IMG/VR virus record: IMGVR_UViG_3300028048_001599
Direction: 5' to 3' (one strand)
DNA from: a virus
Lineage: Duplodnaviria > Heunggongvirae > Uroviricota > Caudoviricetes
DNA: 64,000 bases
In this document: piece by piece, positions 3 to 64,000 of the stretch
Layout of the letters: every line of letters begins with the position of its first letter
Numbering within the stretch: position 1 is the first letter of the stretch
Notes under the pieces: generated by a model
Database searches by the model: none
What the model saw: only the letters and a program-made list of their open reading frames with translations
What the model was told of the DNA's origin: nothing
Position numbers and translations under genes: made by a program

Positions 3-1829
3 TTATTTGATTTTTATGGTATGGAAGGTTCTCAAGGTACTATTGCTCAGATGTTAGCAAATTATGGGGCGCAGAGCTTATCTGCTATGGTAAATCAGAG
101 TGGGTCAGATTTTGTAGTTCAAGGTAGTTCTCAGGCACTTACGGCTCTCGGTGCATTAAACAGTATTGCTGTAGTGTACTATCCCGATGAAAAGGACATG
201 ACAAAGATTAATACTGCTTTATGTACTGCAAACTGTAATTTATTCTCGACACTTACAGGTATGGGTGCAATTCAAGGGGTAACAAAAGGTGCTGAAGATA
301 GAAAGCTTAATACAACAATAAGTAGGCTTTCAATACCTACGATGAAATCGGTATCAGGAACAAAGGCAAATGTTTTTAAAGATATTTTATACGGAAACAA
401 GAATAAACAGTTGGTTTATTCTGGACCTCTGCTCAAGTTTGGTGATGTCGATTCTAACGTTATTGAGTTTTCATACACAAACTGTAATGGTATTCCGATT
501 GAATCTGCATTGTTTGTACCGTTGGTATTCTACTTTATTCTTGAAGATATTTTCTTTGATGTGTTTACTACCGATGGGCATAAAGGTATGACTTCAGCTG
601 CCATTGCTACTTCTGTTGAGAAGTCGAAGAAGTTATTGAAGTTGCTTGCAGATGATAAACGAACAACTAATGGGGTATGGAAATCACTTCCAGTTGCTCG
701 TGACCGCTCAATAACTCTTTCAGAAAATGTTCTGCGTAAAGTTTATGGTAAGGAAACCGATGAACTTGTTCAGAAGATTAATAGAATCAAGCCACAACTT
801 GGTTTTACTTTATCTCTGTTGAAGTTCTCATTCTATGATTTGCGTGGTGCTTATGACTCTTATGAGCCACAACGGATTGATCCATTAACATTTAGATGTT
901 TATCCGACTATTCAAAGAAACAGTTTACTGAGGATGTTGGCGTAATACGTTCAACATCGAAATATCCGAAGTTTGTTCTTGTAAGTATATACCGTGAAAG
1001 CGTAGATAATTTAATGACAAAGAAGATTGATGCACCTTCATTCTGGCAGACATTACACATCCCTGAAGATGTACTTGCAAATGCGAAATTTGGAGATGAG
1101 CATAAAAAATATGTTTATGGTGCATTTAAGTTCACTTCTTCCGATTTATATATGTTGATGTCAAAGAACGCTGCAATATTTGGTGATATTGATGGTCGTG
1201 CAAAACAGCGTTTAGCACAATTTAATATGAGCAACTTTAAAAGAGTAAAGATATCACTTTCAGAAGATTGTACTAAGCGTCTTGTAGAAGTAAAGAAGGC
1301 TCTTAACGCAGGCGTATGTTTTGTAGATTATCAAAACAAAAAAGGTGGGGTAAATAGACATACTCTCACCACCAATGAAACAATCATTAAAAAGATATAC
1401 GGTGATGACTATGTAGGAAAATACGGTTCATTGAAGAAACGTATTGAAACTATGCGTTACGGTATTGAAAATGCAAAATCTCTCGCAGATATCAACTACT
1501 ATATCAATAAAACAGGCATAATGGATTTAGCAGGTATTGAGGTTAAAGATAAGTACGGTAAAGTAATCGGAACTAATCCGAATTTCCCAGTGATATCTGA
1601 GGATTTTGAAGCATACAAACGTGAGTTGAATAGTTACCTTGATAATCTTTGTGGTCAATCAGGGGTATCTCGTTCAAAACCTGATGATATTCCACCTGAA
1701 AAACAAACAGTATTCGGGGTATCTCTTGCTGCAACACCTAAAAACAAATCCGCCGACATCGAGGGTAGTAAGGATTTTTATTCGTTCCTTGAAATCGGAG
1801 GCATAGTTGGTTTGTATGTATTACGTTAA
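3..1829 (+). CDS. Large hypothetical protein, probably 5'-truncated by the window edge
   Basis: The ORF-track start is 21, but the frame is open from position 3 and there is no RBS before the ATG at 21. No recognisable motif. Confidence 0.75.
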   Translation, partial: LFDFYGMEGSQGTIAQMLANYGAQSLSAMVNQSGSDFVVQGSSQALTALGALNSIAVVYYPDEKDMTKINTALCTANCNLFSTLTGMGAIQGVTKGAEDRKLNTTISRLSIPTMKSVSGTKANVFKDILYGNKNKQLVYSGPLLKFGDVDSNVIEFSYTNCNGIPIESALFVPLVFYFILEDIFFDVFTTDGHKGMTSAAIATSVEKSKKLLKLLADDKRTTNGVWKSLPVARDRSITLSENVLRKVYGKETDELVQKINRIKPQLGFTLSLLKFSFYDLRGAYDSYEPQRIDPLTFRCLSDYSKKQFTEDVGVIRSTSKYPKFVLVSIYRESVDNLMTKKIDAPSFWQTLHIPEDVLANAKFGDEHKKYVYGAFKFTSSDLYMLMSKNAAIFGDIDGRAKQRLAQFNMSNFKRVKISLSEDCTKRLVEVKKALNAGVCFVDYQNKKGGVNRHTLTTNETIIKKIYGDDYVGKYGSLKKRIETMRYGIENAKSLADINYYINKTGIMDLAGIEVKDKYGKVIGTNPNFPVISEDFEAYKRELNSYLDNLCGQSGVSRSKPDDIPPEKQTVFGVSLAATPKNKSADIEGSKDFYSFLEIGGIVGLYVLR

Positions 1830-1863
1830 GTATAAGGACTTTCATTTGTGTCTTTCTCCTTTC

Positions 1864-1900
1864 TGGGCTTACCTTGTGATTTGGTAAGCCCATTTGTTTT
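1864..1900 (+). terminator. Intrinsic terminator
   Basis: Stem TGGGCTTACC/GGTAAGCCCA followed by a T-rich tract, downstream of the stop at 1829. Confidence 0.75.
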
Positions 1901-8526: not shown

Positions 8527-11500
8527 GTGTTCAAAGACATGAGTAAATTAATTAAGGACTTTATGGAAAAGTGGTCTACACGTGGTAGTGAAAAATCAGA
8601 GTCACAATCGTATTGGATTGAGTTATTACAAACATTGGGGGTACAGAAACCCACTAACTTTATTCAATTTGAGAAGACTGTTAAGGATGGTAGGAACACA
8701 ATTTATATTGATGGTTATATTCCAAAAACGAAGGTTCTAATTGAAATGAAGTCATCAACAATAAATCTTGACGATAAACTTGTACAGTCTAATGGGGACA
8801 AACTCACTCCATTTGAACAAGCACAGAAGTATATTGTGCATCTTCCTCGTTCAGAGCATCCACGTTATGTTGTAACATGTAATTTTAAGGAAATTCGTGT
8901 ATATGACATGGAGAATCCTAATAATGCACCAGTAAGTATATTTATCAACGAGTTGAATACACAGTCTTACCGTCTTTCATTTTTAATCAAAGAGGACAAT
9001 GTACACCTTGAGCGTCAGGTCAAGGTATCAAAGGAGGCTGTTCAGCTTATTTCTAAATTATACGATGCATTTTCGAAGCAATATAAGACGATTAACGAGG
9101 AGACATCAAGAAATCTCAATATTCTTTGTGTACGTATAGTATTTTGTTTATTTGCAGACGACAGTGGATTGTTTGAAAAGAACCAGTTCATCAACTTTAT
9201 TCAAAATAGCAACGTAGGTCTTGCGCGTCAAAACCTTATAAACTTATTTAAGGTACTTGATACAGATGAAAAAGACCGTGACCCGTATGACACATCAGGT
9301 ATAAATAGTTTTCCATACGTAAATGGTGGACTTTTCAAAGAAGTTATAACAATACCAACTATTACCGAGGACATGTTAGAAACCCTTGTCACAGTAGCTG
9401 AGTTTGACTGGTCACAGATTAGTCCTACGATATTCGGTTCTATTTTTGAGAGTACATTGTCTGCAAAGCGTAGACACGAAAATGGTATGCACTACACGTC
9501 GGTAGTCAACATTCATAAGGTAATTGACAATTTGTTCCTTGACGAGTTCTACGCTGAGTTTGACCGAATAAGGGGTATAGAGCGTAAGACACTTCGTAGT
9601 TTGGAGTTAAGGAAATTTCAGATGAAGCTTGCTACATACAAGTTTCTTGACCCTGCCTGTGGTTCAGGTAACTTCTTGACTGAAACTTATACATGTATTC
9701 GTAGACTTGAAAATGAAATTATACGTGAAATCCGTAAGTGTGACACATCACTTTTTCCATCCACCGAGTCACCTATTAAGGTCAACATTCATCAATTCTA
9801 TGGTATCGAGATAGATGATTTTGCAGTATCCGTAGCAAGAACAGCACTATGGATAGCTGAGGCACAAATGTTTGAAGAAACAAAGGACATTGGTTTTGAT
9901 ATTGACTTTTTCCCACTGAAGTCAAACAATAACATTGTAGAAGGTAACGCACTGCGTATTGATTGGGCGGAAGTCGTAGGAGGGGTAGACACATTAAATT
10001 ACATTATAGGTAACCCACCGTTCTTAGGTTCTAAGAAAATGTCAAAAGAGCAGCATAGTGAAGTTAATTCTATTTTTGATAAAAAAGAATGGAGCAGATC
10101 GGGAAATTTTGATTATGTACTTTGTTGGTTTAAGAAAGCTGTCGATATGATGTTAAAGAATAATAAGATAAAGGCGGCACTTGTAGCAACTAATTCAATA
10201 TGTCAAGGTGAGCCAGTAGGGACTTTTTGGAAAAGGGCAATAGGTTTAGGTATTAATATCAATTTTGCATATACATCATTTTTGTGGGATAACGGGGCAG
10301 ATTTGGAGGCGTCAGTTTTTGTTGTTATTGTAGGGTTTGATACTAATAATGAAAGTAACAAATATATAATAGACAGTAATGGTTTTGTTTCAGAAGCTAA
10401 CAACATAAGTCCATATTTAATAGATGCTGACGATGCAATAGTTGAAACTACAAATGTTCCATTATGTAATGTACCTAAGATGTCGTTTGGTTGTATGGCT
10501 TATGACGATGGATATTTGTCAAAAATCAGTGTAGAAGATAAAAAGGATATATGTAATAAATATCCTGAGTCAGAGAAATATTTTAGACGTATATTAAGTG
10601 GTTTAGAATATTTGCATAATAAGGAAAGATGGTGTTTATGGTTAGAAGATGTGGAAATTGATGAATTAAAAGGTATACCTCCCATATATGAGCGTGTGGA
10701 GAGTGTTAGAAGTTATAGATTAAGTAGTAAAAGCAAAGCAACATTTGAAGCAGCTCATACACCTACGTTATTTTTAATACGTAAGCAGCCAAGGAGTAAT
10801 TATTTAGCTGTTCCTATGGTGTCATCTGAGAAAAGAAAATATATACCAGTAGAGTATATGACAAATGATGAAATTGTATTAAATACGATTTATTATATTG
10901 AGGATGCACCAAAATGGTTATTTAGTATAATGACAGCTGACTTACATACAATTTGGGTTCACTTGGTATGTGCAAGGATGAAAAAAGATATTCATTATTC
11001 AAGCACAATATGTTATAATGCATTTCCATTTATCACACCAACACCTGAAGAAGAAAACAAACTTACAGAACTTGCAAATAACATATTACAAGCTCGTGCA
11101 AATCATCCTAATAAATCACTTGCAGACTTGTACGACCCTGAAAATATGCCTGACGACTTGCGTAAAGCACATAAAGAAAATGATATCTACGTGCGTAGTC
11201 TGTATGGTTTTAAACCCGACGATACAAAGGAGCACATTCTTGCAGGACTTCTCACTTGTTATAAAGCACTGTCTACAGGTCAAATTCCCGAAGGTTGGAT
11301 AAATGTTAAGAAAACAAACTTTGTCAATAAGGAACTTGAGAAACCTGTGACACGTGCAATTAGTATAATAAGTAAGGCTAAATCTATTGTAGACCATAGA
11401 ATATCTGAACTAAAACCTACAGATAATACATATGGTATGTTATCTTTTATATCGAATAAACTTAAAAACTTTTACAGTATTCTCACAACTGTAGATTTCA

Positions 11501-12090
11501 CTCCGAAAAATATGAGGAAAATAGTAACAGGGGTAGAAAAGATAGTATCACTTGCTGTTCCATCTAACTCAAAGTCACTTCAGGATACTGCTAAGTCCTT
11601 TGAAGACATCTTGAATAATTATGAAGCCGACATTGATTATGATTACAGTACTCGTCTACTTAAACTTGTGTCTATGTTGGACTCACTTGTTCAGATAGAT
11701 ACACCTGTATCGATGTCTGACTTGCGTTCAATATTAGGTATCGAATCGGAGGATGGTATAACAAATAAGTACTTCCTTAGTGACGGGGTATCGGGTTTAT
11801 TACTTGAAGATATTCAGACAGACCTTAACACTATAACACTTACCGTATCTGATGGTAGTCCTGTTCATGATTATTTATCACAGTTAATTCAAGGTAAAGC
11901 TCTTAATATGTCAACATCAACTATTTTATATGTAGCTCAGGACACCGGTTCTCTTGATTGCTTAGCTTCAAAATACGGGGTAACAATAGTTATAACCGAA
12001 GAAAAAGGCAATAAAATCACAGCAACTATAGTAATAAATGGCAAAATCAGTGATGTATTGTTTTACTTAGACAATAATAAAGAAATGTAA
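8527..12090 (+). CDS. MmeI-like Type IIL restriction endonuclease-N6-adenine methyltransferase with an extra C-terminal extension
   Basis: PD-(D/E)XK-like IDGYI...LIEMKS. FPYVNGGLF. Motif I FLDPACGSGNFL. Motif IV GNPPF. MmeI-type tail LADLYDPENMPDDLRKAHKEND. About 270 further residues. The start may be ATG 8539. Confidence 0.85.
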   Translation: MFKDMSKLIKDFMEKWSTRGSEKSESQSYWIELLQTLGVQKPTNFIQFEKTVKDGRNTIYIDGYIPKTKVLIEMKSSTINLDDKLVQSNGDKLTPFEQAQKYIVHLPRSEHPRYVVTCNFKEIRVYDMENPNNAPVSIFINELNTQSYRLSFLIKEDNVHLERQVKVSKEAVQLISKLYDAFSKQYKTINEETSRNLNILCVRIVFCLFADDSGLFEKNQFINFIQNSNVGLARQNLINLFKVLDTDEKDRDPYDTSGINSFPYVNGGLFKEVITIPTITEDMLETLVTVAEFDWSQISPTIFGSIFESTLSAKRRHENGMHYTSVVNIHKVIDNLFLDEFYAEFDRIRGIERKTLRSLELRKFQMKLATYKFLDPACGSGNFLTETYTCIRRLENEIIREIRKCDTSLFPSTESPIKVNIHQFYGIEIDDFAVSVARTALWIAEAQMFEETKDIGFDIDFFPLKSNNNIVEGNALRIDWAEVVGGVDTLNYIIGNPPFLGSKKMSKEQHSEVNSIFDKKEWSRSGNFDYVLCWFKKAVDMMLKNNKIKAALVATNSICQGEPVGTFWKRAIGLGININFAYTSFLWDNGADLEASVFVVIVGFDTNNESNKYIIDSNGFVSEANNISPYLIDADDAIVETTNVPLCNVPKMSFGCMAYDDGYLSKISVEDKKDICNKYPESEKYFRRILSGLEYLHNKERWCLWLEDVEIDELKGIPPIYERVESVRSYRLSSKSKATFEAAHTPTLFLIRKQPRSNYLAVPMVSSEKRKYIPVEYMTNDEIVLNTIYYIEDAPKWLFSIMTADLHTIWVHLVCARMKKDIHYSSTICYNAFPFITPTPEEENKLTELANNILQARANHPNKSLADLYDPENMPDDLRKAHKENDIYVRSLYGFKPDDTKEHILAGLLTCYKALSTGQIPEGWINVKKTNFVNKELEKPVTRAISIISKAKSIVDHRISELKPTDNTYGMLSFISNKLKNFYSILTTVDFTPKNMRKIVTGVEKIVSLAVPSNSKSLQDTAKSFEDILNNYEADIDYDYSTRLLKLVSMLDSLVQIDTPVSMSDLRSILGIESEDGITNKYFLSDGVSGLLLEDIQTDLNTITLTVSDGSPVHDYLSQLIQGKALNMSTSTILYVAQDTGSLDCLASKYGVTIVITEEKGNKITATIVINGKISDVLFYLDNNKEM

Positions 12091-12831: not shown

Positions 12832-13101
12832 ATGAAAAAACCTACAAAATTGCAATACTATAGGAAATTTGTGAATGGGTTTACAGTAAACGAATTATCA
12901 GCTATAACAGGTATAACAGTAAGTTCAATAAATAAGTACGAAACAGGGGTAATGGATTTGAATAATGCATCTATTACTATTGTTAAAAGACTTGCAAGAG
13001 CATTAAATTGTACAACAGATGATTTAACAGACTCACTTGATGACATAGACAAGGGGTTGAATAGTTATGATAAGAACAGTAACAATAAGGTTAAGACCTG
13101 A
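12832..13101 (+). CDS. XRE/Cro-family helix-turn-helix regulator
   Basis: LQYYRKFVNGFTVNELSAITGITVSSINKYETG...VKRLARALNCTTDDL, a classic HTH_3 pattern. Overlaps tnpB by 35 bp. Confidence 0.85.
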   Translation: MKKPTKLQYYRKFVNGFTVNELSAITGITVSSINKYETGVMDLNNASITIVKRLARALNCTTDDLTDSLDDIDKGLNSYDKNSNNKVKT

Positions 13102-50366: not shown

Positions 50367-50378
50367 GGAGGGGTAATA

Positions 50379-51074: not shown

Positions 51075-51258
51075 GATTTTTAGAAAGTTTTTATCAGAAT
51101 GGCCGTAAAATGGCTCAGAATCGTCTGTAAGGCTCGAAAATAGAAAAAAGGAGTAGTTTCATATATTTATAAAAAAGTGGCTCAGAAAGGCTCTCAGGGG
51201 ATTTTAGCAATATGGTAATATTTGGTAAATAAATTTTAAAAAGGAAGAGGGGATAATT

Positions 51259-52323
51259 TTGCAAGATTTAGTGCCCGAAAGAGGTGACTCGACAGTTGCG
51301 ATACCGATGACGTTTGACCTTAAAGTTAAACGTGATAACTTATCATTAATTAAAATAGTACTTGGATTTTTGATAACTGTCGTAGGTTTCATAATAATGA
51401 TTGTACTATTTATTGTGGCAGATGAAAAATATAAACCTCAAATACCTTTGATAGTAGGTTTTGGTACTTTTTATTTTGTCCGAATATTTTTCTTAAAGGA
51501 ATGGTTTTATAAGAAAAAGCAAAAAGAATTAATTGAGAATAACTACACATTTAATACAAGATCATTTTGGGGTATTTATTCCATAAATGAGTATTATCCA
51601 TTTATATGTAAGCGTATAGATAACACATTGATTATATTTGTAGCATTTGATAAAGACGTTATAATAGGTCGTGATAGCACTGCCGATTATGACCACTTTC
51701 AAGCAATTGCAAACGCTTACTCAATAATGGTAAGTAAGGGTATCTCTTGTATTCACATTGATTATGCTGATACTGTAGGTAAAGATGACCGTATGGATAC
51801 ATTGTTTGAAAATCTTGTTGAAACAGAAAATAAGGATGTCAAGAATGAGACCATAAGGTTGTATGACTATGTTCAGTCTTATATGTACCGTTCATATGCA
51901 GATTATGACGTATATGCGTTTTATTATGGGGGTAGAGAGGAAGCCTTTTGGGATGATTTACAGCCTGTACTTGATGCTTTTGGTGAAGCAAACTATGTAA
52001 GAAACCGTATATTATCACGTGAAGAAATAGGTGATTTATGTATTTCTTTAATGAACCTTAATGATTTCAGTACAGCAAGAGCTACTGAAAGTGCGTTCTT
52101 AACAAATGTTCGTGGGGGTAACAATATTAAGGTTATTTGGACTGAAAAAGACGGTGTTCGTACAGATGTTAATAGAACTCGTGAGGTAATCGAAGCCGAA
52201 CGTAGAGTTAAGGCGGCAGAGAATGTGATGCAAGAGAACAAACGTAGACGTAAAAAGAAAAAGAAGAGTAAAAAAGATGATATAAACATGGAAGTAAATT
52301 TGAATATTTTTGATGACGAATAA
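51259..52323 (+). CDS. Two-TM protein with cytoplasmic domain, VirB3/PrgI/TcpE-like candidate
   Basis: TTG start after RBS GAGGGG. Two N-terminal TM. Located upstream of the VirB4-like gene. Confidence 0.5.
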   Translation: MQDLVPERGDSTVAIPMTFDLKVKRDNLSLIKIVLGFLITVVGFIIMIVLFIVADEKYKPQIPLIVGFGTFYFVRIFFLKEWFYKKKQKELIENNYTFNTRSFWGIYSINEYYPFICKRIDNTLIIFVAFDKDVIIGRDSTADYDHFQAIANAYSIMVSKGISCIHIDYADTVGKDDRMDTLFENLVETENKDVKNETIRLYDYVQSYMYRSYADYDVYAFYYGGREEAFWDDLQPVLDAFGEANYVRNRILSREEIGDLCISLMNLNDFSTARATESAFLTNVRGGNNIKVIWTEKDGVRTDVNRTREVIEAERRVKAAENVMQENKRRRKKKKKSKKDDINMEVNLNIFDDE

Positions 52324-52370
52324 TGGACTTTTGTCTATTATTAAATATAGCATAAGCTAAGTATTAAGGA

Positions 52371-54965
52371 GTGGTAATTTTGCGATTAGTAATATTGGGT
52401 ACATCTGGTGTTTGTAAGCAGATGGATGAATTGATTAGAAACCAGATAGACAGTATTAGTATTGACACATTTTCGTCTATTGAGGAGTTTGTAGATAATA
52501 CTAATATTCGCACATCTAAATATGACCGTATGTTATTGGTATCTAATGTAATTCCGAAGGCTTTACCTAAAGACCAGAAGCAAAGTAGGTTATACGGATT
52601 ACTTGAATATATAAATGCAAAACTTCCTGAAATTCGTATAATAACAATGTGTCGAGACGCTAATGATTATGAAATGTATAGGTTTGTATTTTCTGCACCT
52701 ATATATGCTAATTTGAACATTAGTAAAGGTTTAAATGCACATTTGATAATTTCAAGTGTGGAAAATGATGTAACACAATTAAAAGCACAGTACGAGGGTA
52801 AGGATGACCTTGGTGTTCAGGTTATACAGCAAACAGTTCAGCAAGAGCACGAAAAAGTCGAAGAAAAACAGGTAAAAAAGAAAGGTAACATTTTCTCAAA
52901 GCTGTTTGGTGGGGGTAAAAAGAAAAAAGAATCTGAACCACCTAAGGCATCTACACAGGGAGTTGATTTACCTCAGCAAGAAATTGAAGAAACTTCAGAT
53001 TCTGACGGCACTTTAACAGATGAAGATATTGACAACCTTGTTGCCGATGTTACTGATATTGATAGTGTTTCTGATACTACTGAGGTAGTATCTTCAAGTA
53101 TATCAGCTGAGAAGTATACTGAAGCAACTCAAACTCCGTCCATAAATAAGAAAAAGAAGAAAAAAAGAGTGGAACCCGAAGTTAACGTTAATTTAGACCA
53201 ACCTATGGGGGTAAAGTATGAAGCACCTAAAAATGCATCATATAATACAGATGTTGTCTATAATGGCGACACGAATCCCATGGGGCATAATCAGGGGGTA
53301 TTTAATCAACCACCTGTAACACCTGTAACTCCCGTAACACCTGTTGCACCTGCAACACCTGTAACTCCCATAACACCTGTTGCACCTGTAACACCTGCAA
53401 CACCTGTAACACCTGTTGCACCTGTTGCACCTGTTGCACCTGCTGCACCTGCTGCACCTGCTTCGTCTGGTGCAGATATATACGGGGGTCAAGTTACGGG
53501 ACAGCAAGGTTCAAGAAATTACACTTCACCAATAGGTTCAACACCAAAGCCAAAGAAATTCACAGCAGACAGTATAGATGATTTAGACTTTTCATTAGAT
53601 GACTCACCTAAGGTAACCATTGACGATGAAGAAACGGAGGAAACAAAAGTTGGGGTTTCATTACAAGATAACCGTAAAGAGGAAAAACCTGTTCTTCCTG
53701 TTGTAACTCCTACTCCGAGACCGTCAAAGGTATCACAGGTAGATGCATCTAAGATAGAGCAGCATAAGTTTAATGTAGAGGATACAAACGATAAAAAGCT
53801 CAATATAGACAGTTCAGGTCATCAAGACGGAGTAACTGGTGTAAGGCTTACACAGGGTATCAATACACAAACTGAGGAAGAAGATGACTTTGAAGCTGCT
53901 TTCGTTAAAAAGTCTTATAGTAGACGAGCACCTAGTTCATTTGGTGATATTTCTTCTTTACCTTCATTTGATGATATTAACTTGAATAGTGAAAATGACG
54001 ATGTCGAAGAAGCTGTGGACGATGATGAAATTAATATTGTTCCTGTAGACCCTGCATTGTTAAATGCACAACAGGCTCAGGCTTCGCAACCTAAGGTAAT
54101 TGAAAAAGTTGTTGAACGTGTCGTAGAAAAACCTGTTGAAGTTATCAAGGAAGTTGAGAAAATAGTTGAAAAACCTGTTGAGAGGGTAGTTGAAAAAGAG
54201 GTAGTAAAGGAAAAGATGGTATATGTAGCAGGGGGTAGTTCTTCTGTTCACCATCTTAAAGATATTCTCGCAGCACAGGAGCCAACATACCTATTAATAA
54301 CTGGTGACCGTAGGAGTAGTATCACAACAACATCTCTTTCTCTTGCTAACATATTTGGTAGTAAGTTAAGGACTTTATATGTTGATTTGGATACAAAGAA
54401 TCATGGTTCTCTTGTAAGACTTGGTATTCAGAATATTGTTGACGAGGATGAATCTGTTCAGAACGGTCTTAAGAATATAAGAACACCAAAAGTTCTTGAA
54501 AACATAGTATATTGGGGTAATAACGTATTTGCATCACTTATATCTATGTTTGGTACTGATGTAAGTGATTCTGAGATAACAAGAGCTGCTAATGTACTTG
54601 CCGTTCAGCACTCATTTAACGTTGTTGTTATTGACTGTCCTTTGGATAAGTTATGCTTGTTGGATGATTTACTTCCTATTTGTGATACGATAATTTGTAT
54701 TGATGGTTCAGTACAGGGTATTATGAATACTATGAGTGAATTAACAGAATTAACAGAAAACGGGGTATCAAAAAAGGTTCAGAATATGATGTATCGTTCT
54801 TCAAGAATACTGATTACTGGAAAAGATGCTGACGCTAAGATGTTTAATGAAAATAGAAAATTTGTTGATGACATATTTAGTTTGTCAGATGAACCTATTC
54901 CTTGGATAAAAACACCTGTTATGGGTACATTAAATAATTTGGTGAAAGCAGTAAAAAATATGTAA
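52371..54965 (+). CDS. Receiver-like N-domain + long disordered linker + degenerate ParA/MinD-like domain
   Basis: C-terminal [19 protein letters not shown]...TLYVDLD...VVVIDCP follows the ParA/MinD topology but lacks the GKT lysine. PVT/PVA and VEKPVE repeats. Confidence 0.6.
53310..53460 (+). repeat. 9-bp coding repeats ([12 protein letters not shown])
   Basis: Run of about 16 CCTGTAACA/CCTGTTGCA-type units. Confidence 0.85.
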
Positions 54966-54971
54966 ACTGAT

Positions 54972-55003
54972 GGCGATTGTGTCAAAACCGCAATCGCCTT
55001 TTA
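54972..55003 (+). terminator. Hairpin/terminator
   Basis: GGCGATTGTG/CGCAATCGCC plus TTTT. Confidence 0.7.
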
Positions 55004-55024
55004 GGTTAATATAGAGGTGATATT

Positions 55025-56278
55025 ATGAAAAGTCGTTCATTGTCGACAAAAAAGAAAGGTAGATTACTTGTAACTACTGGTGACTACAAACTAAAAGGGT
55101 TTACAGTAGTAAAAACATTAAAGGGGGTAGATTGGTCTGGAATTGAGGGTTTAATATTTAACTCTAGTGAGGATGATGACCTTACTGTGTATTCAGAAAT
55201 TGTAAAAGTAAAGAACAGTCTTAAATTCATTATTTACATTAATTCTGATGTTAAACCTATATTTTTCAGTCTATTCTCTGGTATTAATGGTGACATTTAT
55301 AATAATTCAGACTTACTTGGGGATGAAACTATTGTAGATTTTATGATTACAAAGTACGGTCAGACAGGTTTAACAATTAAATCATCGGCTCAGGACTTTG
55401 AAAGCTTAAATAAAAGTCTGAAAAAGGTATTAAATGCTGAGGAAACGGATGTGCATAACTTTGTCAAAAATAGACTTTGGAAAAAGACAGTGTGTGAGGC
55501 ACTTGCAACTGTAGATTCGTCATTGGCTCGTGCAGACCAAATCAATAATGATATGGTACAAATTATAGGTCAAGCTAAAGACCAAGCAGATAAGTTGATG
55601 GAAACTAATCAAGAAATCAATGACCAGTTAGTATCTATGCAAGAAACAATGTCAGAATTTTCAAACGGGGTAACAACAACTCCTATGTTTTATACTGCAT
55701 ATAAGGTTTCAGCTGCAACAAAACGAGTATTGTCGGTAAAATGTTATAGTCATTGTAATTACCTTGTGTCATTTTTGATAGCTTATCAGAAGTATCTTAA
55801 ACAATCTTTGGGGGTAGACTCACGTATATTGTTAGTGCTTCCAAACTTACCAATATTTGTTTCAAGATATAAGGAATTACCGAGACTGGCAACTGAAACA
55901 TTGGGTGTCATGCAAAACCTTAATCGTGATTTATATTGTACTTTCGAGCCTAAACGTGAAGTTATGAAACGTTTCTTTGAAGGTAATAACATGATTTATA
56001 TAGTTGTAGACGAGATGTATAGTAACGCTATTGTATCTTCTGGTGCTAAGGTAGAGAAATTTTACGCAGTATCAGGGGGTAGTGACATTTCAAGATTTGA
56101 TTTGAAACCCGAAAGAACATTCTTTCCTGTTGTAGGTCTTGAAGAAGGTTTCGTAATTCCCTATATTCAGGATTACAATACTAAATATCCGGGTATGCCT
56201 GCAAAACTTCAGGCTTATTATACTGGTTGTAGAAAACTTTACGATAGACTTGATAAAATTCTTGGTGTGAAGGGTTAA
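55025..56278 (+). CDS. Hypothetical protein with central coiled coil
   Basis: alpha/beta N-domain, heptad-like QAKDQADKLMETNQEINDQL, alpha/beta C-domain. Confidence 0.75.
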   Translation: MKSRSLSTKKKGRLLVTTGDYKLKGFTVVKTLKGVDWSGIEGLIFNSSEDDDLTVYSEIVKVKNSLKFIIYINSDVKPIFFSLFSGINGDIYNNSDLLGDETIVDFMITKYGQTGLTIKSSAQDFESLNKSLKKVLNAEETDVHNFVKNRLWKKTVCEALATVDSSLARADQINNDMVQIIGQAKDQADKLMETNQEINDQLVSMQETMSEFSNGVTTTPMFYTAYKVSAATKRVLSVKCYSHCNYLVSFLIAYQKYLKQSLGVDSRILLVLPNLPIFVSRYKELPRLATETLGVMQNLNRDLYCTFEPKREVMKRFFEGNNMIYIVVDEMYSNAIVSSGAKVEKFYAVSGGSDISRFDLKPERTFFPVVGLEEGFVIPYIQDYNTKYPGMPAKLQAYYTGCRKLYDRLDKILGVKG

Positions 56279-56287
56279 TAAGGTGGT

Positions 56288-58393
56288 GTGAAAATGGGAC
56301 TTTCATTTCATCCTATAAAACATATTAAAAAGGTTATTAACCTATATGATGATTTGATTTGTACTCAGTTAATAAAAGATTCTTCTATGGAGTGTCTTAA
56401 TAAACAATGTGGTAGAGACGAAATCATAATAGATTTTCTGGGTATGTATGATAAAAATAATATAACTTACTTTTATGTATTTTCTAATTATCCTATTGAG
56501 TTACCATTAGACTATAAGGATAAAATAAGACTTAACTGTCATGGCAATACACGTGTGTCTTTTTACAATTGTTTATCAGGGCATAAAATTGACTGGTCGA
56601 GTCCACAGATGAAATCTAAGCTTAGGGTTTTAAGGATGGCAAATCAGGAACAAGCAAGTAAAAATGTTGACGCTTTTAACTTGCATGATAACCTTGCATC
56701 TATGGGTCGTCAAGAATTTATTGAAAATTCACTTATATATTTATCAAATGCTGATATTCGTAGAAATCGTACACTTTTAAAATCATCAGTAATGATGACA
56801 ATAAGTGGGATACGTGGTGAGGAGTTTGATGAATCCGTAGCTGCTATTGTTGAATATTGTAAGCATATAGGTTTACAGGCGGAGCGTGTAACATATGATG
56901 TTCCTGATATATTATCATATTTCTCTCCATTTAGGCATTTGAGATATGATGTAGGTAAACGCGTCGATAATATACCATCACAGATATTGCCTGATGAACT
57001 TGTAGCGAGATTTAGTAGTTATTCACAAGGAATATTAGGTGTAGGGGGTAAAAGGGCTTTATATTTCGGGACTGATATTTACTCAGGTTTTCCTGTTTTA
57101 AAGGTTGTTAAGTATACTCCCGAAGCACCTGAGATTTGGTTATGCACTGCAGAGACTGGTGGCGGTAAGTCTTTCTTTGTAAAATCATTAATACTTCAAT
57201 TATTAGCTAATAACATGAATGGTACTATAATGGACGTTGAGGGTAATGAGTACTCATATCTTGCAGAGTTCTGTTCAAGGGGTAGTAAAGTTGTTGTATT
57301 AAACATGGGTGAAGGTCAAGGTAAATATTTTGACCCTGTTGAAATTCCGAAACCTACGGGTATTGAGGATATAGACAAAGACGCTAAGAAAATGTCTATA
57401 GACTTTACAAATGCCATCCTTAAGGTATTACTTGGTAGAGCCTATGAGGAGAACGTGTGGCTTTCTTCTGTTGTAAATGATGTTGTTGCTACAACATATA
57501 ATCGTTTTGGTATAACTGATGATAGACGCTCATGGATATTATCTGAAGGTATGACCTTATATGATGTGTTTGATACACTAAGGATAATGCATGATTTTAT
57601 AAGGTCTAATTCTGAGGAAAGACGTACTATTCTTAATAAATACCATATAGAGATGCCAGAGTACACTAATAATAAGGATTACATGAAGGCTATTGAGCAG
57701 GCTGTAGCTTTCATAAGTCCTTACTTTTTAAAAGATGGTTTAAGAAGTTCATTATTTAAGGAACGTGTATTAGTATCTGATGTCGCTGAGGCTGACTTGG
57801 TTGTATGTTCGTTTGGTATGGCTGGTAAAGCTACCCATGCTATTGATGAAGTACAGTTAGCATTGATGCAATTATCAGCGGCTCAGATAAGTCACCAGAG
57901 GTCGATATTTAGTAAAGCCAAAGGTAAGTTTAACTTTAAGGTATGGGAGGAGTTCCAAAGATGGGGTAAATTCCCAGATAGTGATAAGACTATCGGTGTT
58001 GCTGTAACTGGTGGTCGTAAACTTGGTGACACTAACATAATAATAACTAACTTTGTTAAAGAGCTTCTTGATGAGGACAGATTTGCTATCTTTTCAAATA
58101 AAACGTCATTTATGATTGGTTCTATCGATGACAAACAGGTTCGTGATGAACTTGCGGATAGATTATCAATTCCTAATATGAAACATGAACTTGATAATAT
58201 AGCTGCTGCTCATAAGACAGATGATAACTTTAAAAATGCGAGTGGGGGTAGTAGCTCACTGTTTAGGTTTGGTTTCTTACTAGGATTGGATAACAGTAAA
58301 TACGGGGTAGCAAAGATGTTAGTACCTCGTACAATGGCAAAATCGGACTTGTTTAGAACAGGTGTTAAAGTTGACGATGACTCTGAAGAATAA
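56288..58393 (+). CDS. VirB4/TraC/ConE-like type IV secretion ATPase
   Basis: YFGTD...G.PV, Walker A AETGGGKS, IMDVEGNEY, YFDP, Walker B KVWEEFQ, GRKLG...IIITN. Confidence 0.8.
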   Translation: MKMGLSFHPIKHIKKVINLYDDLICTQLIKDSSMECLNKQCGRDEIIIDFLGMYDKNNITYFYVFSNYPIELPLDYKDKIRLNCHGNTRVSFYNCLSGHKIDWSSPQMKSKLRVLRMANQEQASKNVDAFNLHDNLASMGRQEFIENSLIYLSNADIRRNRTLLKSSVMMTISGIRGEEFDESVAAIVEYCKHIGLQAERVTYDVPDILSYFSPFRHLRYDVGKRVDNIPSQILPDELVARFSSYSQGILGVGGKRALYFGTDIYSGFPVLKVVKYTPEAPEIWLCTAETGGGKSFFVKSLILQLLANNMNGTIMDVEGNEYSYLAEFCSRGSKVVVLNMGEGQGKYFDPVEIPKPTGIEDIDKDAKKMSIDFTNAILKVLLGRAYEENVWLSSVVNDVVATTYNRFGITDDRRSWILSEGMTLYDVFDTLRIMHDFIRSNSEERRTILNKYHIEMPEYTNNKDYMKAIEQAVAFISPYFLKDGLRSSLFKERVLVSDVAEADLVVCSFGMAGKATHAIDEVQLALMQLSAAQISHQRSIFSKAKGKFNFKVWEEFQRWGKFPDSDKTIGVAVTGGRKLGDTNIIITNFVKELLDEDRFAIFSNKTSFMIGSIDDKQVRDELADRLSIPNMKHELDNIAAAHKTDDNFKNASGGSSSLFRFGFLLGLDNSKYGVAKMLVPRTMAKSDLFRTGVKVDDDSEE

Positions 58394-58414
58394 ATAGTAA
58401 TGGTGGTGTAGAAA

Positions 58415-58561
58415 GTGCCGATATTTATATTTATTAGTATATTGTTGAGTGGTTATGTTGCAGCTACAATGAAAGATGAGGATAAAACGAGGTATTTTTT
58501 AACATTGGGTGTCATTATACTGATTTTAATAGTACCTCGATTACTCACTGGAAAATTATAA
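58415..58561 (+). CDS. 48-aa two-TM microprotein (not in the ORF track)
   Basis: GTG after GGTGGTG. MPIFIFISILLSGYVAATMKDEDKTRYFLTLGVIILILIVPRLLTGKL fills the gap between the two ATPase genes. Confidence 0.65.
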   Translation: MPIFIFISILLSGYVAATMKDEDKTRYFLTLGVIILILIVPRLLTGKL

Positions 58562-58580
58562 GATATAGGGTGGTTATAAA

Positions 58581-60971
58581 ATGCAAGATATAACGTCTAA
58601 AGTATCACAAGAGGATATGGATAATGCACGTATGAGCAGAGAACGTTCAACTAACCCTCCTGATTTTGAACCCGGTATGTCTGACGATGATGACTTATTT
58701 GATTCGCTTGACGATTTCGGAGGTGGGGGTAGTAACATGGACGATTTCGGTAATAATGACAGTGGCTTCGGAGCACCTGGTGGAGGATTTGGAGCACCTG
58801 GTGGAGGATTTGGAGCACCTGGTGGAGGATTTGGAGCACCTGGTGGAGGATTTGGAGTTGGGGGTGGCTTTGGTCAGCAACAGCAACAAAATAATAAAGC
58901 ACCCGAAGATAAATTCTTTGATGTACTAAAGAATTTCTTTGTAGGTTTCAAAGATTGGGCTAAAAATTTTATACAAACATTTAAAGAATTAGACGTTAGA
59001 AAGCGAGTAAACGCAGGTAAATACATATTCATTATAGGTTTAGTATGTGCAGCTATTGGTTTTATATGTATATTTTTCACTGATAAGTTTGGTTTTCAAA
59101 TGTTAGCATCTTCACTGTTTGCATCAGCATTTGGGGTAGTTTTATTTATGTTTTCATATGATAAGGCTAAGACATTAGGTATAGATTTATCAAACCCAGA
59201 GTTTCAACCACAACCTCAACCTGAAAATAATGGTTTTGGCGGGGGTTTAAATGACGAAATAGATTTTAGTGATGAGGACGATGATATTTCCTTTGATGAC
59301 GATGACTTTGGTGAGGATGACGGTGATGAAATAAATATAGATGACCTTGATGATTTTGTACCAGTATCAGATGAACCTGATACATTGAGTAGTCCACCTG
59401 TTGACAGTGATACTGTTTTAGCATCTGTTAATATAGACCACGGTATGGTAACACGTCAATATCTCTATGAAACAATCACTCAAATTCTTCCGAATTGTGA
59501 TACGACTTATGATAAGGAAATAGTATACAATGATGATTCACCTGAGTTTAATTCATGGGATGCAATAATAAAGCAAGCCGCAGACGTATTCAGGGGTAAT
59601 CAAGAGGACAGTCCAAACTTGATGGAGTTGAAGGACAAGTTGTTTTATTGGCAACTCACAGTTAGTCGTGTAAAATGGATAAAGAATGTAGAACAGCTTG
59701 TTGATGAATTGGTAAACATCGTTAAGTATGATGATAACGGTGGTTGTGATGATTCAGTATATGGTACAGGGGTATATGTGGGCAACAAGGCAATTATAAA
59801 GATATACAAGGGTTCAACTGCAATGGTATCAGTAAAGGATGCTTATAGACAGTGTAAGGATTTTGTTCTTGATACTGGTAATAAAATGCCTGTCGTTCTT
59901 GGTATTGATTCAGAAGGTAAGGTTGTAATAAAAGACCTTTCTAAGATATTTGCACTTTGTGTAGCAGGTATGCCTCGTTCAGGTAAGACATGGCTTGTAC
60001 AGTCTATGTTGACTCAGATGATGTCATATATGAAACCGTCTGAATTGGAATTTTACATATATGACCCGAAGGATAAACTTTCAGACTTTAGGGCTATGAC
60101 AATGCCGCATATTAAGGACTTTAGGTCACGTGATGAGGACATAGTTGCAGGTTTGAAATATATTGTAAAAGTAGAAGCTGAACGTAGGAATAATATTATA
60201 GGTGGTGCAGGCTTCGTTAATATTGAGGACTACAAGAAGGCAAACCCAATGGCTGTAATGCCTTACTTGTATGTGGTAATTGACGAGGTTATAACTTTTG
60301 CAACACGTATGAAGGACGAAAAACCTGATATGTATAAGGAATTTCAGTCGTATTTGAAGGAATTAGTATCAAGACTTCCTGGCATGGGTATTAGATTGTT
60401 TATGATACCTCATGTATTGAAGAATGACATTATTCAGAAAACAACGACAGACCTTATTCCTTGTCGTATTTCAGTTAAGGGTACACCAGACCACATAGAA
60501 GCTGTAACTGGTGCGAAACCGAGGGAGTTTACTAATACATTAACACATTCAGGTGATATGGCTGTACGTCTTGATGGTTATACTAACTTTTGTCATGCCG
60601 CTATTCTTACTTCTACTAATGAAGGAAATAATCATATATTTAACTTCTTAACGCAATTCTGGTTAAAAATAGAACCTGAAAGTATCAAGGGTAGTGTATA
60701 TGAAAGAAATCTAAAACAAGATGGTAATATAGAGGAACTTAAGAGATTAGGTAGCACTTTGAGTAATGAAGATGTAGATGACTTATTATCAGGGGTGCAT
60801 AGTAAAGACACTGATAAATCTAAAAAAGCTAAGAAACGAACAGCACCTGTTGTTAAACGTGATATGAGTTCGGTTTCGGATAGAAATTTAGGTGAATCAA
60901 GTTCTGCAGGTGCTATGGATGATGACTCATTAGACGATTTATTAAGTGGTTTAGATGACGATGATTGGTAA
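58581..60971 (+). CDS. FtsK/SpoIIIE-family ATPase, TcpA/ConQ-like coupling protein candidate
   Basis: Two TM. PVVLGID...KDL, Walker A VAGMPRSGKT, YIYDPK, EAERR, Walker B YVVIDE, GIRL. Confidence 0.85.
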   Translation: MQDITSKVSQEDMDNARMSRERSTNPPDFEPGMSDDDDLFDSLDDFGGGGSNMDDFGNNDSGFGAPGGGFGAPGGGFGAPGGGFGAPGGGFGVGGGFGQQQQQNNKAPEDKFFDVLKNFFVGFKDWAKNFIQTFKELDVRKRVNAGKYIFIIGLVCAAIGFICIFFTDKFGFQMLASSLFASAFGVVLFMFSYDKAKTLGIDLSNPEFQPQPQPENNGFGGGLNDEIDFSDEDDDISFDDDDFGEDDGDEINIDDLDDFVPVSDEPDTLSSPPVDSDTVLASVNIDHGMVTRQYLYETITQILPNCDTTYDKEIVYNDDSPEFNSWDAIIKQAADVFRGNQEDSPNLMELKDKLFYWQLTVSRVKWIKNVEQLVDELVNIVKYDDNGGCDDSVYGTGVYVGNKAIIKIYKGSTAMVSVKDAYRQCKDFVLDTGNKMPVVLGIDSEGKVVIKDLSKIFALCVAGMPRSGKTWLVQSMLTQMMSYMKPSELEFYIYDPKDKLSDFRAMTMPHIKDFRSRDEDIVAGLKYIVKVEAERRNNIIGGAGFVNIEDYKKANPMAVMPYLYVVIDEVITFATRMKDEKPDMYKEFQSYLKELVSRLPGMGIRLFMIPHVLKNDIIQKTTTDLIPCRISVKGTPDHIEAVTGAKPREFTNTLTHSGDMAVRLDGYTNFCHAAILTSTNEGNNHIFNFLTQFWLKIEPESIKGSVYERNLKQDGNIEELKRLGSTLSNEDVDDLLSGVHSKDTDKSKKAKKRTAPVVKRDMSSVSDRNLGESSSAGAMDDDSLDDLLSGLDDDDW
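58770..58857 (+). repeat. Four exact 21-bp tandem repeats encoding GAPGGGF
   Basis: GGAGCACCTGGTGGAGGATTT x4. Confidence 0.9.
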
Positions 60972-60974
60972 GGA

Positions 60975-62069
60975 GTGGTTGTAATGGACTACATAGATGT
61001 AGCCTTAGACCCTGAGGAATTTTTATATCAATATGACAGGGGTATAAGTATAATCAGAGATGCAAGAAAAAGTAAATACCAGTCTGATGAAGAATTGCTT
61101 CAGCATATTATTTCGGAGGATAAAAAAGAACCTACATCTGTAGTTGAAGAAAACACAGAATCAAGGGTAGAAAACAACGATGATGTAGATAATACTGACA
61201 TATTTAAAGACTTTGAGGTATCTCCCGATGAGCTTATTGAAGATGATGACTCTGAGGAGTTTGACGAAGACAGTGATTCTGAAGAGCACATCGTGGATGA
61301 TGAGTACAATGAAGAATTAGAGGACGATTTTGAAGAACTCGAGGACACTGATGATACAATAGATAACTCAGAAAATGAAGACACCATTGATGATTATGAA
61401 GACGAGGATATTGAAGATGAGGACGACTTTGAGGAATCTGAAGACGAGATAATAGAGGACGACTTTGAGGAATCCGAGGAAGAACTAAATGAGGATGACT
61501 TTGAGGAATCTGAAGACGACTTTGAGGAATCCGAGGAAGAACTAAATGAGGATGACTTTGAGGAATCTGAAGACGAGATAATAGAGGACGAGGACGACTT
61601 TGAGGAATCTGAAGACGAGATAATAGAGGACGAGGACGACTTTGAGGAATCTGAAGACGACCTTGTAACTGTAAAATCTTCTACAAAGGTATCAAATAGT
61701 AGTAAAGAAAGTCATTCTTCGTGTAAACCATTACATGGTGAGAGTGACCCTTGGGATAATATCGATGACATCGCCGAAGGGGTAGTTTCTGATTCATCTG
61801 TTCATAAAAAGATAAGAGACGGAGATGAATTATCGAAAGAAAATATTAAAAAACACTCTACAAAAACATCAGAATCAGCACCAACTTCTATTATAAATAG
61901 TGATAAAGGAATCATATATGAAAAGAATATGCCTTTGGTGGAATTTTTGAGAAAGAATAAAAGTATAAGAAAAGTCGATGATGTACTTAAATATTATACT
62001 TTAAAAGATATAAATGAAGCCGTTAAAAAAGGCAGAGTTATGAAAAAGAAAAATAAGTTATTCATTTAA
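60975..62069 (+). CDS. Acidic repeat protein (DDFEESE repeats) with a small basic C-terminal domain
   Basis: D/E-dominated centre. The C-terminus LVEFLRKN...DVLKYYTLKDINEAVKKGRVMKKKNKLFI is compatible with a small winged helix. Confidence 0.8.
   Translation: MVVMDYIDVALDPEEFLYQYDRGISIIRDARKSKYQSDEELLQHIISEDKKEPTSVVEENTESRVENNDDVDNTDIFKDFEVSPDELIEDDDSEEFDEDSDSEEHIVDDEYNEELEDDFEELEDTDDTIDNSENEDTIDDYEDEDIEDEDDFEESEDEIIEDDFEESEEELNEDDFEESEDDFEESEEELNEDDFEESEDEIIEDEDDFEESEDEIIEDEDDFEESEDDLVTVKSSTKVSNSSKESHSSCKPLHGESDPWDNIDDIAEGVVSDSSVHKKIRDGDELSKENIKKHSTKTSESAPTSIINSDKGIIYEKNMPLVEFLRKNKSIRKVDDVLKYYTLKDINEAVKKGRVMKKKNKLFI
61420..61660 (+). repeat. Coding repeats GACTTTGAGGAATC
   Basis: About seven copies encoding DDFEESE. 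Confidence 0.8.
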
Positions 62070-62085
62070 GAAAGGTGATACTATA

Positions 62086-64000
62086 ATGAAAAAAGTGATT
62101 TTATGTTCTTTACTTTGTGCAACATTAATAATGGGGGTATCTGGTTGTTCTTCTAAGACACCTTCTCAGGAAATTGCATCACAGACAAAGGCATTTACAG
62201 CGGAAGAAATCAAAGCTAATCAGACAGCGGGTGCGATAGCAGAACAGAACAACATTGTATTTCAGTACGTTTCCAATTCTGTACAGATTGATAAGGACAA
62301 ATTGATAGCTGTTGAGAAAACAGACGCTGACCGTATCAAGTCTGCTATTTCAGAAATAAACGAAGCTTTGAGAACAGGTGAAACAGTAAAAAAGAATGGG
62401 GTAGTTGAAACGAAACCAACTACAGGTGAGACTTCAGAGTCATCTTCTCAGGTTGCGGAAGTAAATCAGAAATCAGATACTACAATCATTTCTGATAGTA
62501 TTGCAAATTATATGCTTCATAACTTTGCAAAATCTCCGTATTCTTGGAAAATGAATGACTGTAAAATAGTTGGTATGGACTCAGCTACTCATTTATATTT
62601 TGTAGATGTTTATTACGAAACAACTAATGAGAAAAAAGAGGTACTACCAGAAAGTATCATAGTAAAGGGAGAACCGGAGTACTCTACATTATGCGAAAAA
62701 AGACAGGAAGACTACAGCACATTGATGACTTATGCAGTAGGTGGCACTGATAATCTTAAGGAATATCGTGACTCTTTAAAATCATTTGAAACCAAATGGG
62801 GTAAGTTAGATGACATAGCAAAATCTATGGAGTTTGATTCACCTCTTGATTACACCAGACTTTACGGTAAAACAAAATCAGGTATTGGTTGTTACGCATA
62901 TAATAATATTACAAACACTTATGAAATAACTGGTGCAAAAATGGTATATCGTTATGTAATGGGGTACAATTATAACGTAAATGATGAATTACGCATTGAG
63001 CCGAAAGCGGTTTATATGTATAATTACTCTGTAAATAATGGAGAAGACCTTAAGAAAAAATATACTGCGTCTGAGGTTAATGCTGAGGAAGTTTTGAATC
63101 CTTTGGTAAATAAGTTAATTTATAGCTACTCTAAGGCTATGGATGAGTGTGATAATAATGGTTTATATAAACTCTTTAAATCATATAGTAAATATGATAC
63201 CGATGTTAATGCTTACAATGAGTTTGCATACCACAAATATGGTACATATTTATACGATATCTTAGGTAGAGATAATGACAAATTATTTGTTGAAGTAACT
63301 TTCAGTAATAAAGAAAGAACAAAGGGTTCAGCGATGTCGGAGGCTACTTATAAAGATACCCTACTTTTAACATTAATAATTAATGAGGATGATACATTAA
63401 CTCTTATTGATTCACATTTGTTAAATAGAGCACTGATTGGAGAACCGTTATCAGTAATTGAAAAAGTAACCGGGGTATCTGAACAAATCAATTATTCGGA
63501 AAATGCATTTACTGCATCTAATGAAGAAGCTGTTAAGAAAACGATTACTAATTTTATGAAACTTGAATTAACAAAGAATTTTAATAGTGACGTATTTACA
63601 ACATGTATTGATTTGGGTATCAGTAATTCTGAACTGGATAACATTAAGAAAACAATTAATTCGATAGATGCTGGCGAAGTTACAACTTGGATTACAGGTT
63701 ATACAACAAAATCAAATCTTTATGTAAATGCTACTCTTAGAGAAGTGTATAAGGGTTCGGAGACTGATACACAGTCAGAAACATCCGCAAACATTGGTTT
63801 AATAAATCGTAACGGTAATTGGTTCGTTGTTTCATATACCCGTACAATGAATGTAAGATTGACACAGGGAACAACGGTTTCTGACGAAAAATGTCTTGAG
63901 CATTACATAATTAAGGACAATAAGATTTCTTCATTGAAAAAAGAAGTTGCGAAAGTAGCTTCGGATGGTACTACAGAGAGTTCAAACGAAAGCTCAACCG
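62086..64000 (+). CDS. Large lipoprotein, 3'-truncated by the window edge (not in the ORF track)
   Basis: RBS AAAGGTGA. MKKVILCSLLCATLIMGVSG-C lipobox. The frame appears open to the window end. Confidence 0.8.
   Translation, partial: MKKVILCSLLCATLIMGVSGCSSKTPSQEIASQTKAFTAEEIKANQTAGAIAEQNNIVFQYVSNSVQIDKDKLIAVEKTDADRIKSAISEINEALRTGETVKKNGVVETKPTTGETSESSSQVAEVNQKSDTTIISDSIANYMLHNFAKSPYSWKMNDCKIVGMDSATHLYFVDVYYETTNEKKEVLPESIIVKGEPEYSTLCEKRQEDYSTLMTYAVGGTDNLKEYRDSLKSFETKWGKLDDIAKSMEFDSPLDYTRLYGKTKSGIGCYAYNNITNTYEITGAKMVYRYVMGYNYNVNDELRIEPKAVYMYNYSVNNGEDLKKKYTASEVNAEEVLNPLVNKLIYSYSKAMDECDNNGLYKLFKSYSKYDTDVNAYNEFAYHKYGTYLYDILGRDNDKLFVEVTFSNKERTKGSAMSEATYKDTLLLTLIINEDDTLTLIDSHLLNRALIGEPLSVIEKVTGVSEQINYSENAFTASNEEAVKKTITNFMKLELTKNFNSDVFTTCIDLGISNSELDNIKKTINSIDAGEVTTWITGYTTKSNLYVNATLREVYKGSETDTQSETSANIGLINRNGNWFVVSYTRTMNVRLTQGTTVSDEKCLEHYIIKDNKISSLKKEVAKVASDGTTESSNESST

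Follow-up and report, generated by a model that had tools for sequence, protein, structure and literature searches.

GGGGTA, a strand-specific and evenly spaced word of pXO16-like giant elements, with a split primase as its candidate reader

The primase of phage T7 reads 5'-GTC (functionally GGGTC, TGGTC and GTGTC), in which the 3' base is cryptic, and makes pppACCC primers; the AtTwinkle primase reads 5'-(G/C)GGA, and the Zn-binding domain contributes to the specificity of T7-class primases for G-rich sites (PMC5737085). Phages that lack recombination modules, LLS and P1, have been found saturated with Chi (Zheng et al. 2025, PMC12315714). The Bacillus thuringiensis plasmid pXO16 has all its coding sequences in one orientation and few database homologues, is transferred as a single strand by a pCW3-like system, and mobilises plasmids without an origin of transfer (oriT) as well as chromosomal markers (PMC6199540). 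We describe here the hexamer GGGGTA in the IMG/VR record IMGVR_UViG_3300028048_001599, a stretch of 64,000 nucleotides called the window below. Judged by its gene content and gene order, the window comes from a giant plasmid-like element distantly related to pXO16. In this DNA and its relatives the word GGGGTA is positively selected, strand-specific and evenly spaced, and it is specific to a family of pXO16-like giant one-directional elements and not to their hosts. An open literature search found no description of the word in pXO16 or elsewhere.

The exact count in the window is 134 copies of GGGGTA on the + strand, from position 276 to position 63472, where a preliminary description of the sequence had estimated about 130, and no copy of TACCCC.

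276..63477, + strand: array of 134 dispersed GGGGTA copies, 4.2-fold above synonymous shuffles

The window has 34% G+C, and at this composition only one copy of the hexamer would be expected in about 5-6 kb. TA directly follows 134 of the 183 maximal runs of at least four G, in agreement with the earlier impression that most such runs continue in this way. With 160 occurrences of GGGGT against 134 of GGGGTA, and no 7- or 8-mer extension above Markov expectation in the window, the hexamer is the exact word here; its core GGGTA occurs 179 times on the + strand and 19 times as the reverse complement. The copies within genes fall in all three codon phases (70/35/20) and nine lie outside open reading frames (ORFs), as had been proposed. 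Four or five of these nine double as a Shine-Dalgarno sequence, in the form GGGGGTA followed by a gap of 5-9 nt and ATG.

21559..21564, + strand: copy doubling as ribosome-binding site (GGGGGTA, 5 nt, ATG)
22435, 37151 and 50370: further copies doubling as ribosome-binding site

This excess is not a product of codon use. Synonymous-codon shuffles within genes, which preserve each protein and the codon usage of each gene, gave 31.9 +/- 3.9 copies against the 134 observed (z = 26), global synonymous shuffles 29.8 +/- 4.1 and codon permutation 23.8 +/- 3.5, so that z lies between 26 and 31 across the three schemes. The excess likewise survives shuffling in pXO16 and in three metagenomic relatives (G005, G006 and G007, introduced below), and a codon-use artefact was therefore rejected; the target of selection is the nucleic acid and not the protein, as the preliminary description had held. 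Indeed, GGG is a minor glycine codon in the window (13%), yet GGG-GTA writes 70 of its 133 Gly-Val dipeptides.

The polarity of the word needs more care. ORFs cover 59.5 kb of the + strand and 0.2 kb of the - strand, all ORFs of at least 150 aa are on the + strand, and GC skew ranges between +0.13 and +0.26 across all 4-kb bins. The absence of TACCCC reported by the preliminary description was confirmed, but it is unremarkable alone: the shuffles predict 1.6-2.4 copies, and 8-19% of them contain none. If the reverse word were enriched as strongly as the forward one, however, about 7 copies would be expected in the window against the 0 seen (P = 0.001), 15 against 5 in pXO16, 18 against 4 in G005 and 23 against 6 in G006, with P as low as 3e-5 in the relatives. 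Over the window and its relatives the forward word is enriched 2.4-4.2-fold and the reverse word is not depleted. The polarity is thus real, and only one orientation is selected. This pattern differs from the strand bias left by Type III restriction (T7 and EcoP15I), since here the forward word is enriched and the reverse word is not avoided. It resembles uptake sequences (uptake signal sequences, USS, and DNA uptake sequences, DUS) in that these occur once per about 0.5-1 kb, are evenly spaced and are written into coding DNA; USS and DUS, however, occur in both orientations, whereas GGGGTA is selected in one only and its reverse stands at shuffle expectation. We know of no uptake specificity in Bacillota.

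The spacing of the copies is itself under selection. Distances between neighbouring copies in the window have a mean of 475 bp, a median of 406 bp and a coefficient of variation (CV) of 0.67, and the longest gap is 1566 bp; in pXO16 the CV is 0.71 and the longest gap 2.1 kb. Random placement gives a CV of 1.0, and none of 5000 random-placement simulations reached a value as low as that observed, for the window or for pXO16. Gaps below 100 bp show a three- to four-fold deficit in both. The choice of codons follows the same rule: GGG-GTA makes up 0-14% of Gly-Val dipeptides that have another copy within 50 bp and 77-100% of those with none within 500 bp, a dependence seen in the window, in pXO16 and in a small phage, G008, described below. 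Since word use depends on the distance to the neighbouring copy, mutational drive was rejected as the cause. The Gly-Val dipeptide itself is 1.3-1.7-fold over-represented, which shows that the signal reaches into protein sequence. Only 1 of 23 word positions is shared between orthologues; sites are not kept, and selection holds density and spacing rather than particular positions.

The word was then followed through the relatives of the window. pXO16, a 350-kb plasmid of B. thuringiensis serovar israelensis, gives the top plasmid matches of the window's transfer module, and the two are alike in their syntenic transfer modules, one-way genes, strong GC skew and equal word density. It carries 658 GGGGTA against 5 TACCCC, at 37-52 per 25 kb round the whole circle; its GC skew is positive throughout and the polarity never switches. 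The wider family was collected by a profile search with a VirB4-like protein.

56288..58393, + strand: VirB4-like ATPase (DUF87/AAA_10), marker for collecting the family

This search gave 71 metagenomic and 3 IMG/VR loci, on contigs of up to 400 kb and from many gut samples. Among the 64 loci of at least 8 kb, 56 have at least 2 GGGTA per kb; the median is 3.9 per kb and the median polarity 0.93. Four whole elements were compared, namely pXO16, G005 (129 kb), G006 (180 kb) and G007 (225 kb), the last two of which have terminal repeats. The forward and reverse counts of GGGTA are 505:35 in G005, 526:54 in G006 and 667:36 in G007, evenly distributed round the molecule. The preliminary description had asked whether polarity flips or stays uniform over a full replicon; in the whole relatives it is uniform round complete circles. 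Inocle elements, which have two replichores and switching gene orientation, were rejected as relatives in layout. Reversed genes of at least 200 aa are nearly absent, with only two in about 1.9 Mb of family DNA, both word-poor on both strands; the long one, in G007, has one word copy on each strand and so speaks for neither a DNA-level nor an RNA-level reading. This reversed gene (100139-102674 of the G007 reverse complement, 122617-125151 in the original) encodes an 845-aa protein with an apparent N-terminal signal peptide.

Flanking preferences differ by lineage and follow the VirB4 tree: any flank is accepted in the window, pXO16 prefers WGGGGTAK, and G005-G007 prefer DGGGTAT. A 5' C is excluded in all lineages. 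In pXO16 the base before the word is G in 1% and C in 3% of copies, and G or T is preferred after it; in the window, GGGGGTA accounts for 26% of the copies. From these preferences, the specificity of the reader appears to differ between lineages, and flanks that follow the lineage of the element are expected if the reader evolves with the element.

No such signal was found in host DNA. The word is at background in three other plasmids of the pXO16 strain and in B. anthracis pXO1, one phage-plasmid being included (forward/reverse 55/54, 15/21, 19/15 and 13/12). Chromosome samples of B. thuringiensis and B. cereus contain 5/3 and 3/1 copies per 21.7 kb, where about 40 would be expected at pXO16 density; their 8 gene-strand copies in 43 kb compare with about 7 expected from composition. 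Four Clostridia metagenome-assembled genomes (MAGs) that host relatives show no excess either, with observed/control ratios of 0.9-1.3. A host-wide signal was therefore rejected. The idea of an element-specific signal thus holds in that the word belongs to the element and not to the host, but the word is shared by the whole family and not private to this one element. The outcomes that had been named beforehand as speaking against such a signal did not appear: the excess outlives shuffling, the reverse word is not comparably frequent, and the host samples are not enriched. The word is also a practical marker of these giant elements, which are common in gut metagenomes, and of foreign insertions in them.

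About 45 syntenic core genes are common to pXO16, G005, G006 and G007, and among them is a replication machinery. Each of the four has a DnaB-like helicase and a family A DNA polymerase, 1132-1212 aa long, that includes a 3'-5' exonuclease domain. A DnaG-type Zn-ribbon occurs as a protein of its own (178-201 aa), and another protein, about 265 aa long, matches Toprim_2 above the curated cut-off in 4 of 4 and has a weak DNAG_N match in 3 of them. The shared core also includes gyrase, an NAD-dependent ligase and a clamp-loader-like ATPase, the last of which is represented in the window.

NZ_CP045024.1: 24876-26339: pXO16 DnaB-like helicase
NZ_CP045024.1: 33700-34272: pXO16 Zn-ribbon protein
NZ_CP045024.1: 161594-162394: pXO16 Toprim protein, about 128 kb from the Zn-ribbon gene
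NZ_CP045024.1: 116607-120005: pXO16 1132-aa family A polymerase, homologue of the G005 polymerase at 38-39% identity
31644..32933, + strand: clamp-loader-like AAA+ ATPase (DNA_pol3_delta2), the sole replisome-type family core gene within the window

By these domain assignments, the whole relatives possess a T7-like replisome whose DnaG-type primase is split in two. We found no mention of the split primase and polymerase of pXO16 in reviews. In phage and plasmid collections the Zn-ribbon protein of pXO16 has remote homologues only, at no more than 35% identity save for short partial matches. The gene of 291-317 aa beside the Zn-ribbon gene was rejected as the catalytic part of the primase, having no Pfam match, and the Toprim partner lies elsewhere; in alignment this protein looks like it carries an RNase H/RuvC-type motif.

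Our preferred reading, which we put forward tentatively, is that the word is a priming site of the family's own split primase. GGGGTA would mark the starts of RNA primers for discontinuous synthesis of the complementary strand, used in Okazaki fragments during unidirectional vegetative replication; the same polarity would also fit second-strand synthesis on a transferred single + strand. The reader would be the stand-alone Zn-ribbon protein together with the stand-alone DNAG_N/Toprim protein, acting alongside the DnaB-like helicase and the family A polymerase of the element. If 5'-GGGGTA-3' on the + strand is read 3'-to-5', its 3' A would be cryptic, synthesis would start opposite the T and the predicted primer would be pppACCCC, an arrangement shared with T7 primase sites, at which 5'-GGGTC gives pppACCC. 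A chance hexamer, at the frequency given by composition, would be too sparse for Okazaki-scale priming, so that selection would have to write the word in.

Several observations are consistent with this priming role. The word is on the strand that has positive GC skew and carries all genes, and this strand would serve as the lagging-strand template if forks and transcription move the same way. Like T7-class primase sites, the word is short, G-rich and, on that condition, on the lagging-strand template, with end base(s) that would be cryptic and a predicted primer of the pppACCC(C) type; the family further resembles the T7 replisome in its family A polymerase, DnaB-like helicase and Zn-ribbon primase module (PMC5737085). 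It differs from T7 in that the primase is split into two small proteins and the predicted site is a hexamer, or a 10-mer in some elements. The host DnaG of B. anthracis primes at CTA/TTA and not at GTA (PMC2978363), and the host primase of Clostridioides difficile prefers CCC (PMC5204125); the word on the + strand matches neither. The position of the word on the inferred lagging-strand template, at an even, Okazaki-scale spacing, makes a primase site the best supported of the candidates in the preliminary description, although this support is partial: relatives encode a split primase, but the word also occurs in a phage without one.

This phage, G008 (IMGVR_UViG_3300045988_067457), recovered by a pattern scan of IMG/VR, heads the evidence that weighs against priming. 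Its genome, complete at 25.4 kb, is that of a tailed phage, with genes for terminase, portal, tape measure and endolysin, and every gene points the same way; the word occurs in it 57:0, with the consensus TCAGGGGTAGT and a CV of 0.48. It has no Zn-ribbon match, no primase and no recognisable replication gene, and shares no family core gene by BLAST and by profiles of the 45 core families. The presence of the word in such a phage would be more simply explained by a shared host reader. Further points lie on the same side. The genome of T7 has sites that are neither polar nor clearly enriched (GGGTC 39/55, TGGTC 79/62, GTGTC 43/42), so that the best-studied precedent leaves no such signature. An outgroup branch, G004, has a family-like polymerase of 1187 aa and no enrichment of the word. 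The 10-mer consensus in G008 and in a second contig, G009, exceeds the length of known primase sites. Finally, the primase genes were seen in the whole relatives; in the replicon under study they would lie outside the window.

For G008 there are two possible accounts: the reader is a host factor, or phages of this kind make use of machinery that belongs to the giant elements. It is conceivable, if rather improbable, that small phages of this type, having no replication genes of their own, copied the word and its flanks to use the replisome of the giant elements (replisome piracy); (G)GGGTA would then be a private priming code of a hitherto unrecognised family of giant plasmids, at which the split primase starts each fragment of the complementary strand. 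The second contig, G009 (IMGVR_UViG_3300045988_186543), comes from the same metagenome as G008 and shows the same 10-mer. In reverse complement, its first 30 kb are a co-oriented phage structural module with zero GGGGTA, and 30-76 kb are 45 kb of giant-element-like DNA with 104 copies and the consensus TCAGGGGTAG. G009 is probably a prophage inside a giant element, with the word sharply marking the boundary. Its co-oriented but word-free module indicates that the word does not arise from gene orientation and cellular milieu alone.

Among the alternatives to priming, a reader of another kind is possible though somewhat doubtful, for instance an enzyme that nicks one strand, a loader or a nucleoid protein; the word might also be the by-product of a biased repair or mutation process. 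For most genes of these elements no function has been assigned, and the family core also includes a conserved HNH endonuclease and an SNF2 helicase, which leaves room for such a reader. Pure mutational drive, on the other hand, is contradicted by the distance dependence, and nothing positive favours any particular other reader. The MmeI-like enzyme encoded in the window (see below) was considered and is not supported: its gene is accessory and is missing from the set of pXO16 homologues. For restriction targets, avoidance and not enrichment is the rule, and MmeI-family enzymes methylate a penultimate A.

A Chi-like role, also proposed in the preliminary description, is kept as a rival, and we consider it doubtful. 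Here a host helicase-nuclease (AddAB/RexAB or another end-processing enzyme) would read the word on the 3'-ended strand, and the switch from degradation to repair would protect broken forks, rolling-circle tails and incoming linear DNA, a protection that would serve elements without recombination or anti-nuclease functions of their own. Known Chi words differ between genera. Like Chi, GGGGTA is a polar, over-represented G-rich oligomer gathered on one strand of a mobile element, on the presumed leading-strand sequence and selected in one orientation; Chi-saturated phages without Rec modules are documented (PMC12315714), and a host-encoded reader would explain the word in the unrelated phage G008. 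Unlike Chi, however, the word shows no enrichment in the 43 kb of chromosome samples, the four B. cereus-group plasmids or the host MAGs, and the same core is found in elements of Bacilli and of gut metagenomes, across distant hosts, with flanks that track the phylogeny of the element. Its even spacing and neighbour exclusion are also unlike Chi: copies within 50-100 bp of another are not maintained, though stacked Chi would add protection.

An action at the level of RNA, or coupled to transcription, appears unlikely. GGGGUA would occur about every 450 nt in each long transcript and would bind the anti-Shine-Dalgarno of 16S rRNA or a protein, stabilising long mRNAs against 5'-to-3' decay; in a variant, an elongation or antitermination factor would read the non-template DNA strand. 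In favour, the family has essentially no reversed genes and the word always lies on the sense strand, GGGGU is Shine-Dalgarno-like and serves as ribosome-binding site in the few window copies listed above, and host factors would explain G008. Canonical GGAGG, though, would be the stronger partner of the anti-Shine-Dalgarno, and the invariant TA and the flank preferences would go unexplained; moreover, host genes do not use the word, and the co-oriented prophage module of G009 has none in 30 kb.

A guide for a translocase, another proposal of the preliminary description, is disfavoured and in our view very unlikely. On the model of the FtsK orienting polar sequences and SpoIIIE recognition sequences (KOPS/SRS), or of the Streptomyces TraB-clt system, the word would orient or load a motor such as the FtsK-like coupling ATPase for unidirectional export of a molecule of 100-350 kb.

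58581..60971, + strand: FtsK/SpoIIIE-type coupling ATPase, motor domain matching FtsK and the pCW3-type coupling protein

The sequences read by FtsK-family motors are G-rich polar 7-8-mers, and known KOPS/SRS are 10-20 times sparser than the word. The likeness is that GGGGTA is G-rich, polar and on the presumed leading-strand sequence, that an FtsK-family motor is encoded and is a conserved core gene, and that a frequent loading word could explain how pXO16 mobilises chromosomal markers and plasmids that lack oriT (PMC6199540). But there is no polarity switch at an origin or terminus, no FtsK_gamma match was found in the coupling ATPase by Pfam and PDB profile search at the sequence level, phage G008 has no such motor, and a close relative of the motor sits in word-free DNA. 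This relative is on contig L002 of C. difficile CD160 (AVHW01000009.1, 25% G+C), which lies inside the VirB4 clade of the window (VirB4-like protein at 46%) and is the closest relative of the transfer module in genome collections; it keeps the ATPase (48% identity) and its neighbours, and GGGTA stands at half the composition expectation. The C. difficile CD160 genome has no family-type polymerase.

If the split primase is the reader, this would be the first case known to us of a replicon visibly writing Okazaki start sites into its genes, and the template code of a new primase architecture would be defined. If a host enzyme reads the word, a polar DNA signal would exist in Bacillota that is used by mobile elements and not by chromosomes. 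pXO16 is experimentally tractable, and a hexamer written about 660 times on one strand offers a handle on its replication, its origin of transfer and its oriT-less mobilisation.

The kinship of the window to pXO16 rests on 12 of its about 59 genes, which have pXO16 homologues at 20-41% identity in the same order, the VirB4-like protein being at 38-40%. These genes belong to a transfer module of the type IV secretion system (T4SS) kind.

30692..62069, + strand: T4SS-like transfer module, syntenic with pXO16 325-349 kb plus 0.8-3.2 kb; 69 word copies
40370-46300, + strand: 1976-aa protein, no Pfam match, conserved in pXO16, G005, G006 and G007
46314-49718, + strand: 1134-aa protein with CHAP and YkuD (L,D-transpeptidase) domains

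Cell-wall hydrolases are part of the transfer module, and the module shared with pXO16 also includes a YdjM-like gene. No pXO16 homologues lie in the first half of the window, which consists of ORFans, an MmeI-type restriction-modification gene and tnpB. The window as a whole has no near match in phage or plasmid collections, and exact 35-mers gave no match in the metagenome and IMG/VR collections.

8527..12090, + strand: MmeI-family type IIL restriction-modification gene, 1187 aa, all five MmeI domains; accessory
13067..14182, + strand: TnpB gene (IS605-family RNA-guided nuclease), one word copy

Word density is 1.7/kb in the restriction-modification gene and 2.2/kb in the transfer module, and ORFans are similar. 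The preliminary description had found the word alike in all gene classes, which stands for these three; tnpB holds one copy. The near-normal density in the MmeI-family gene suggests long residence on the element. The TnpB gene is co-oriented with all other genes, its nearest plasmid homologues are only about 32% identical, and related tnpB copies are present in G007 and G009.

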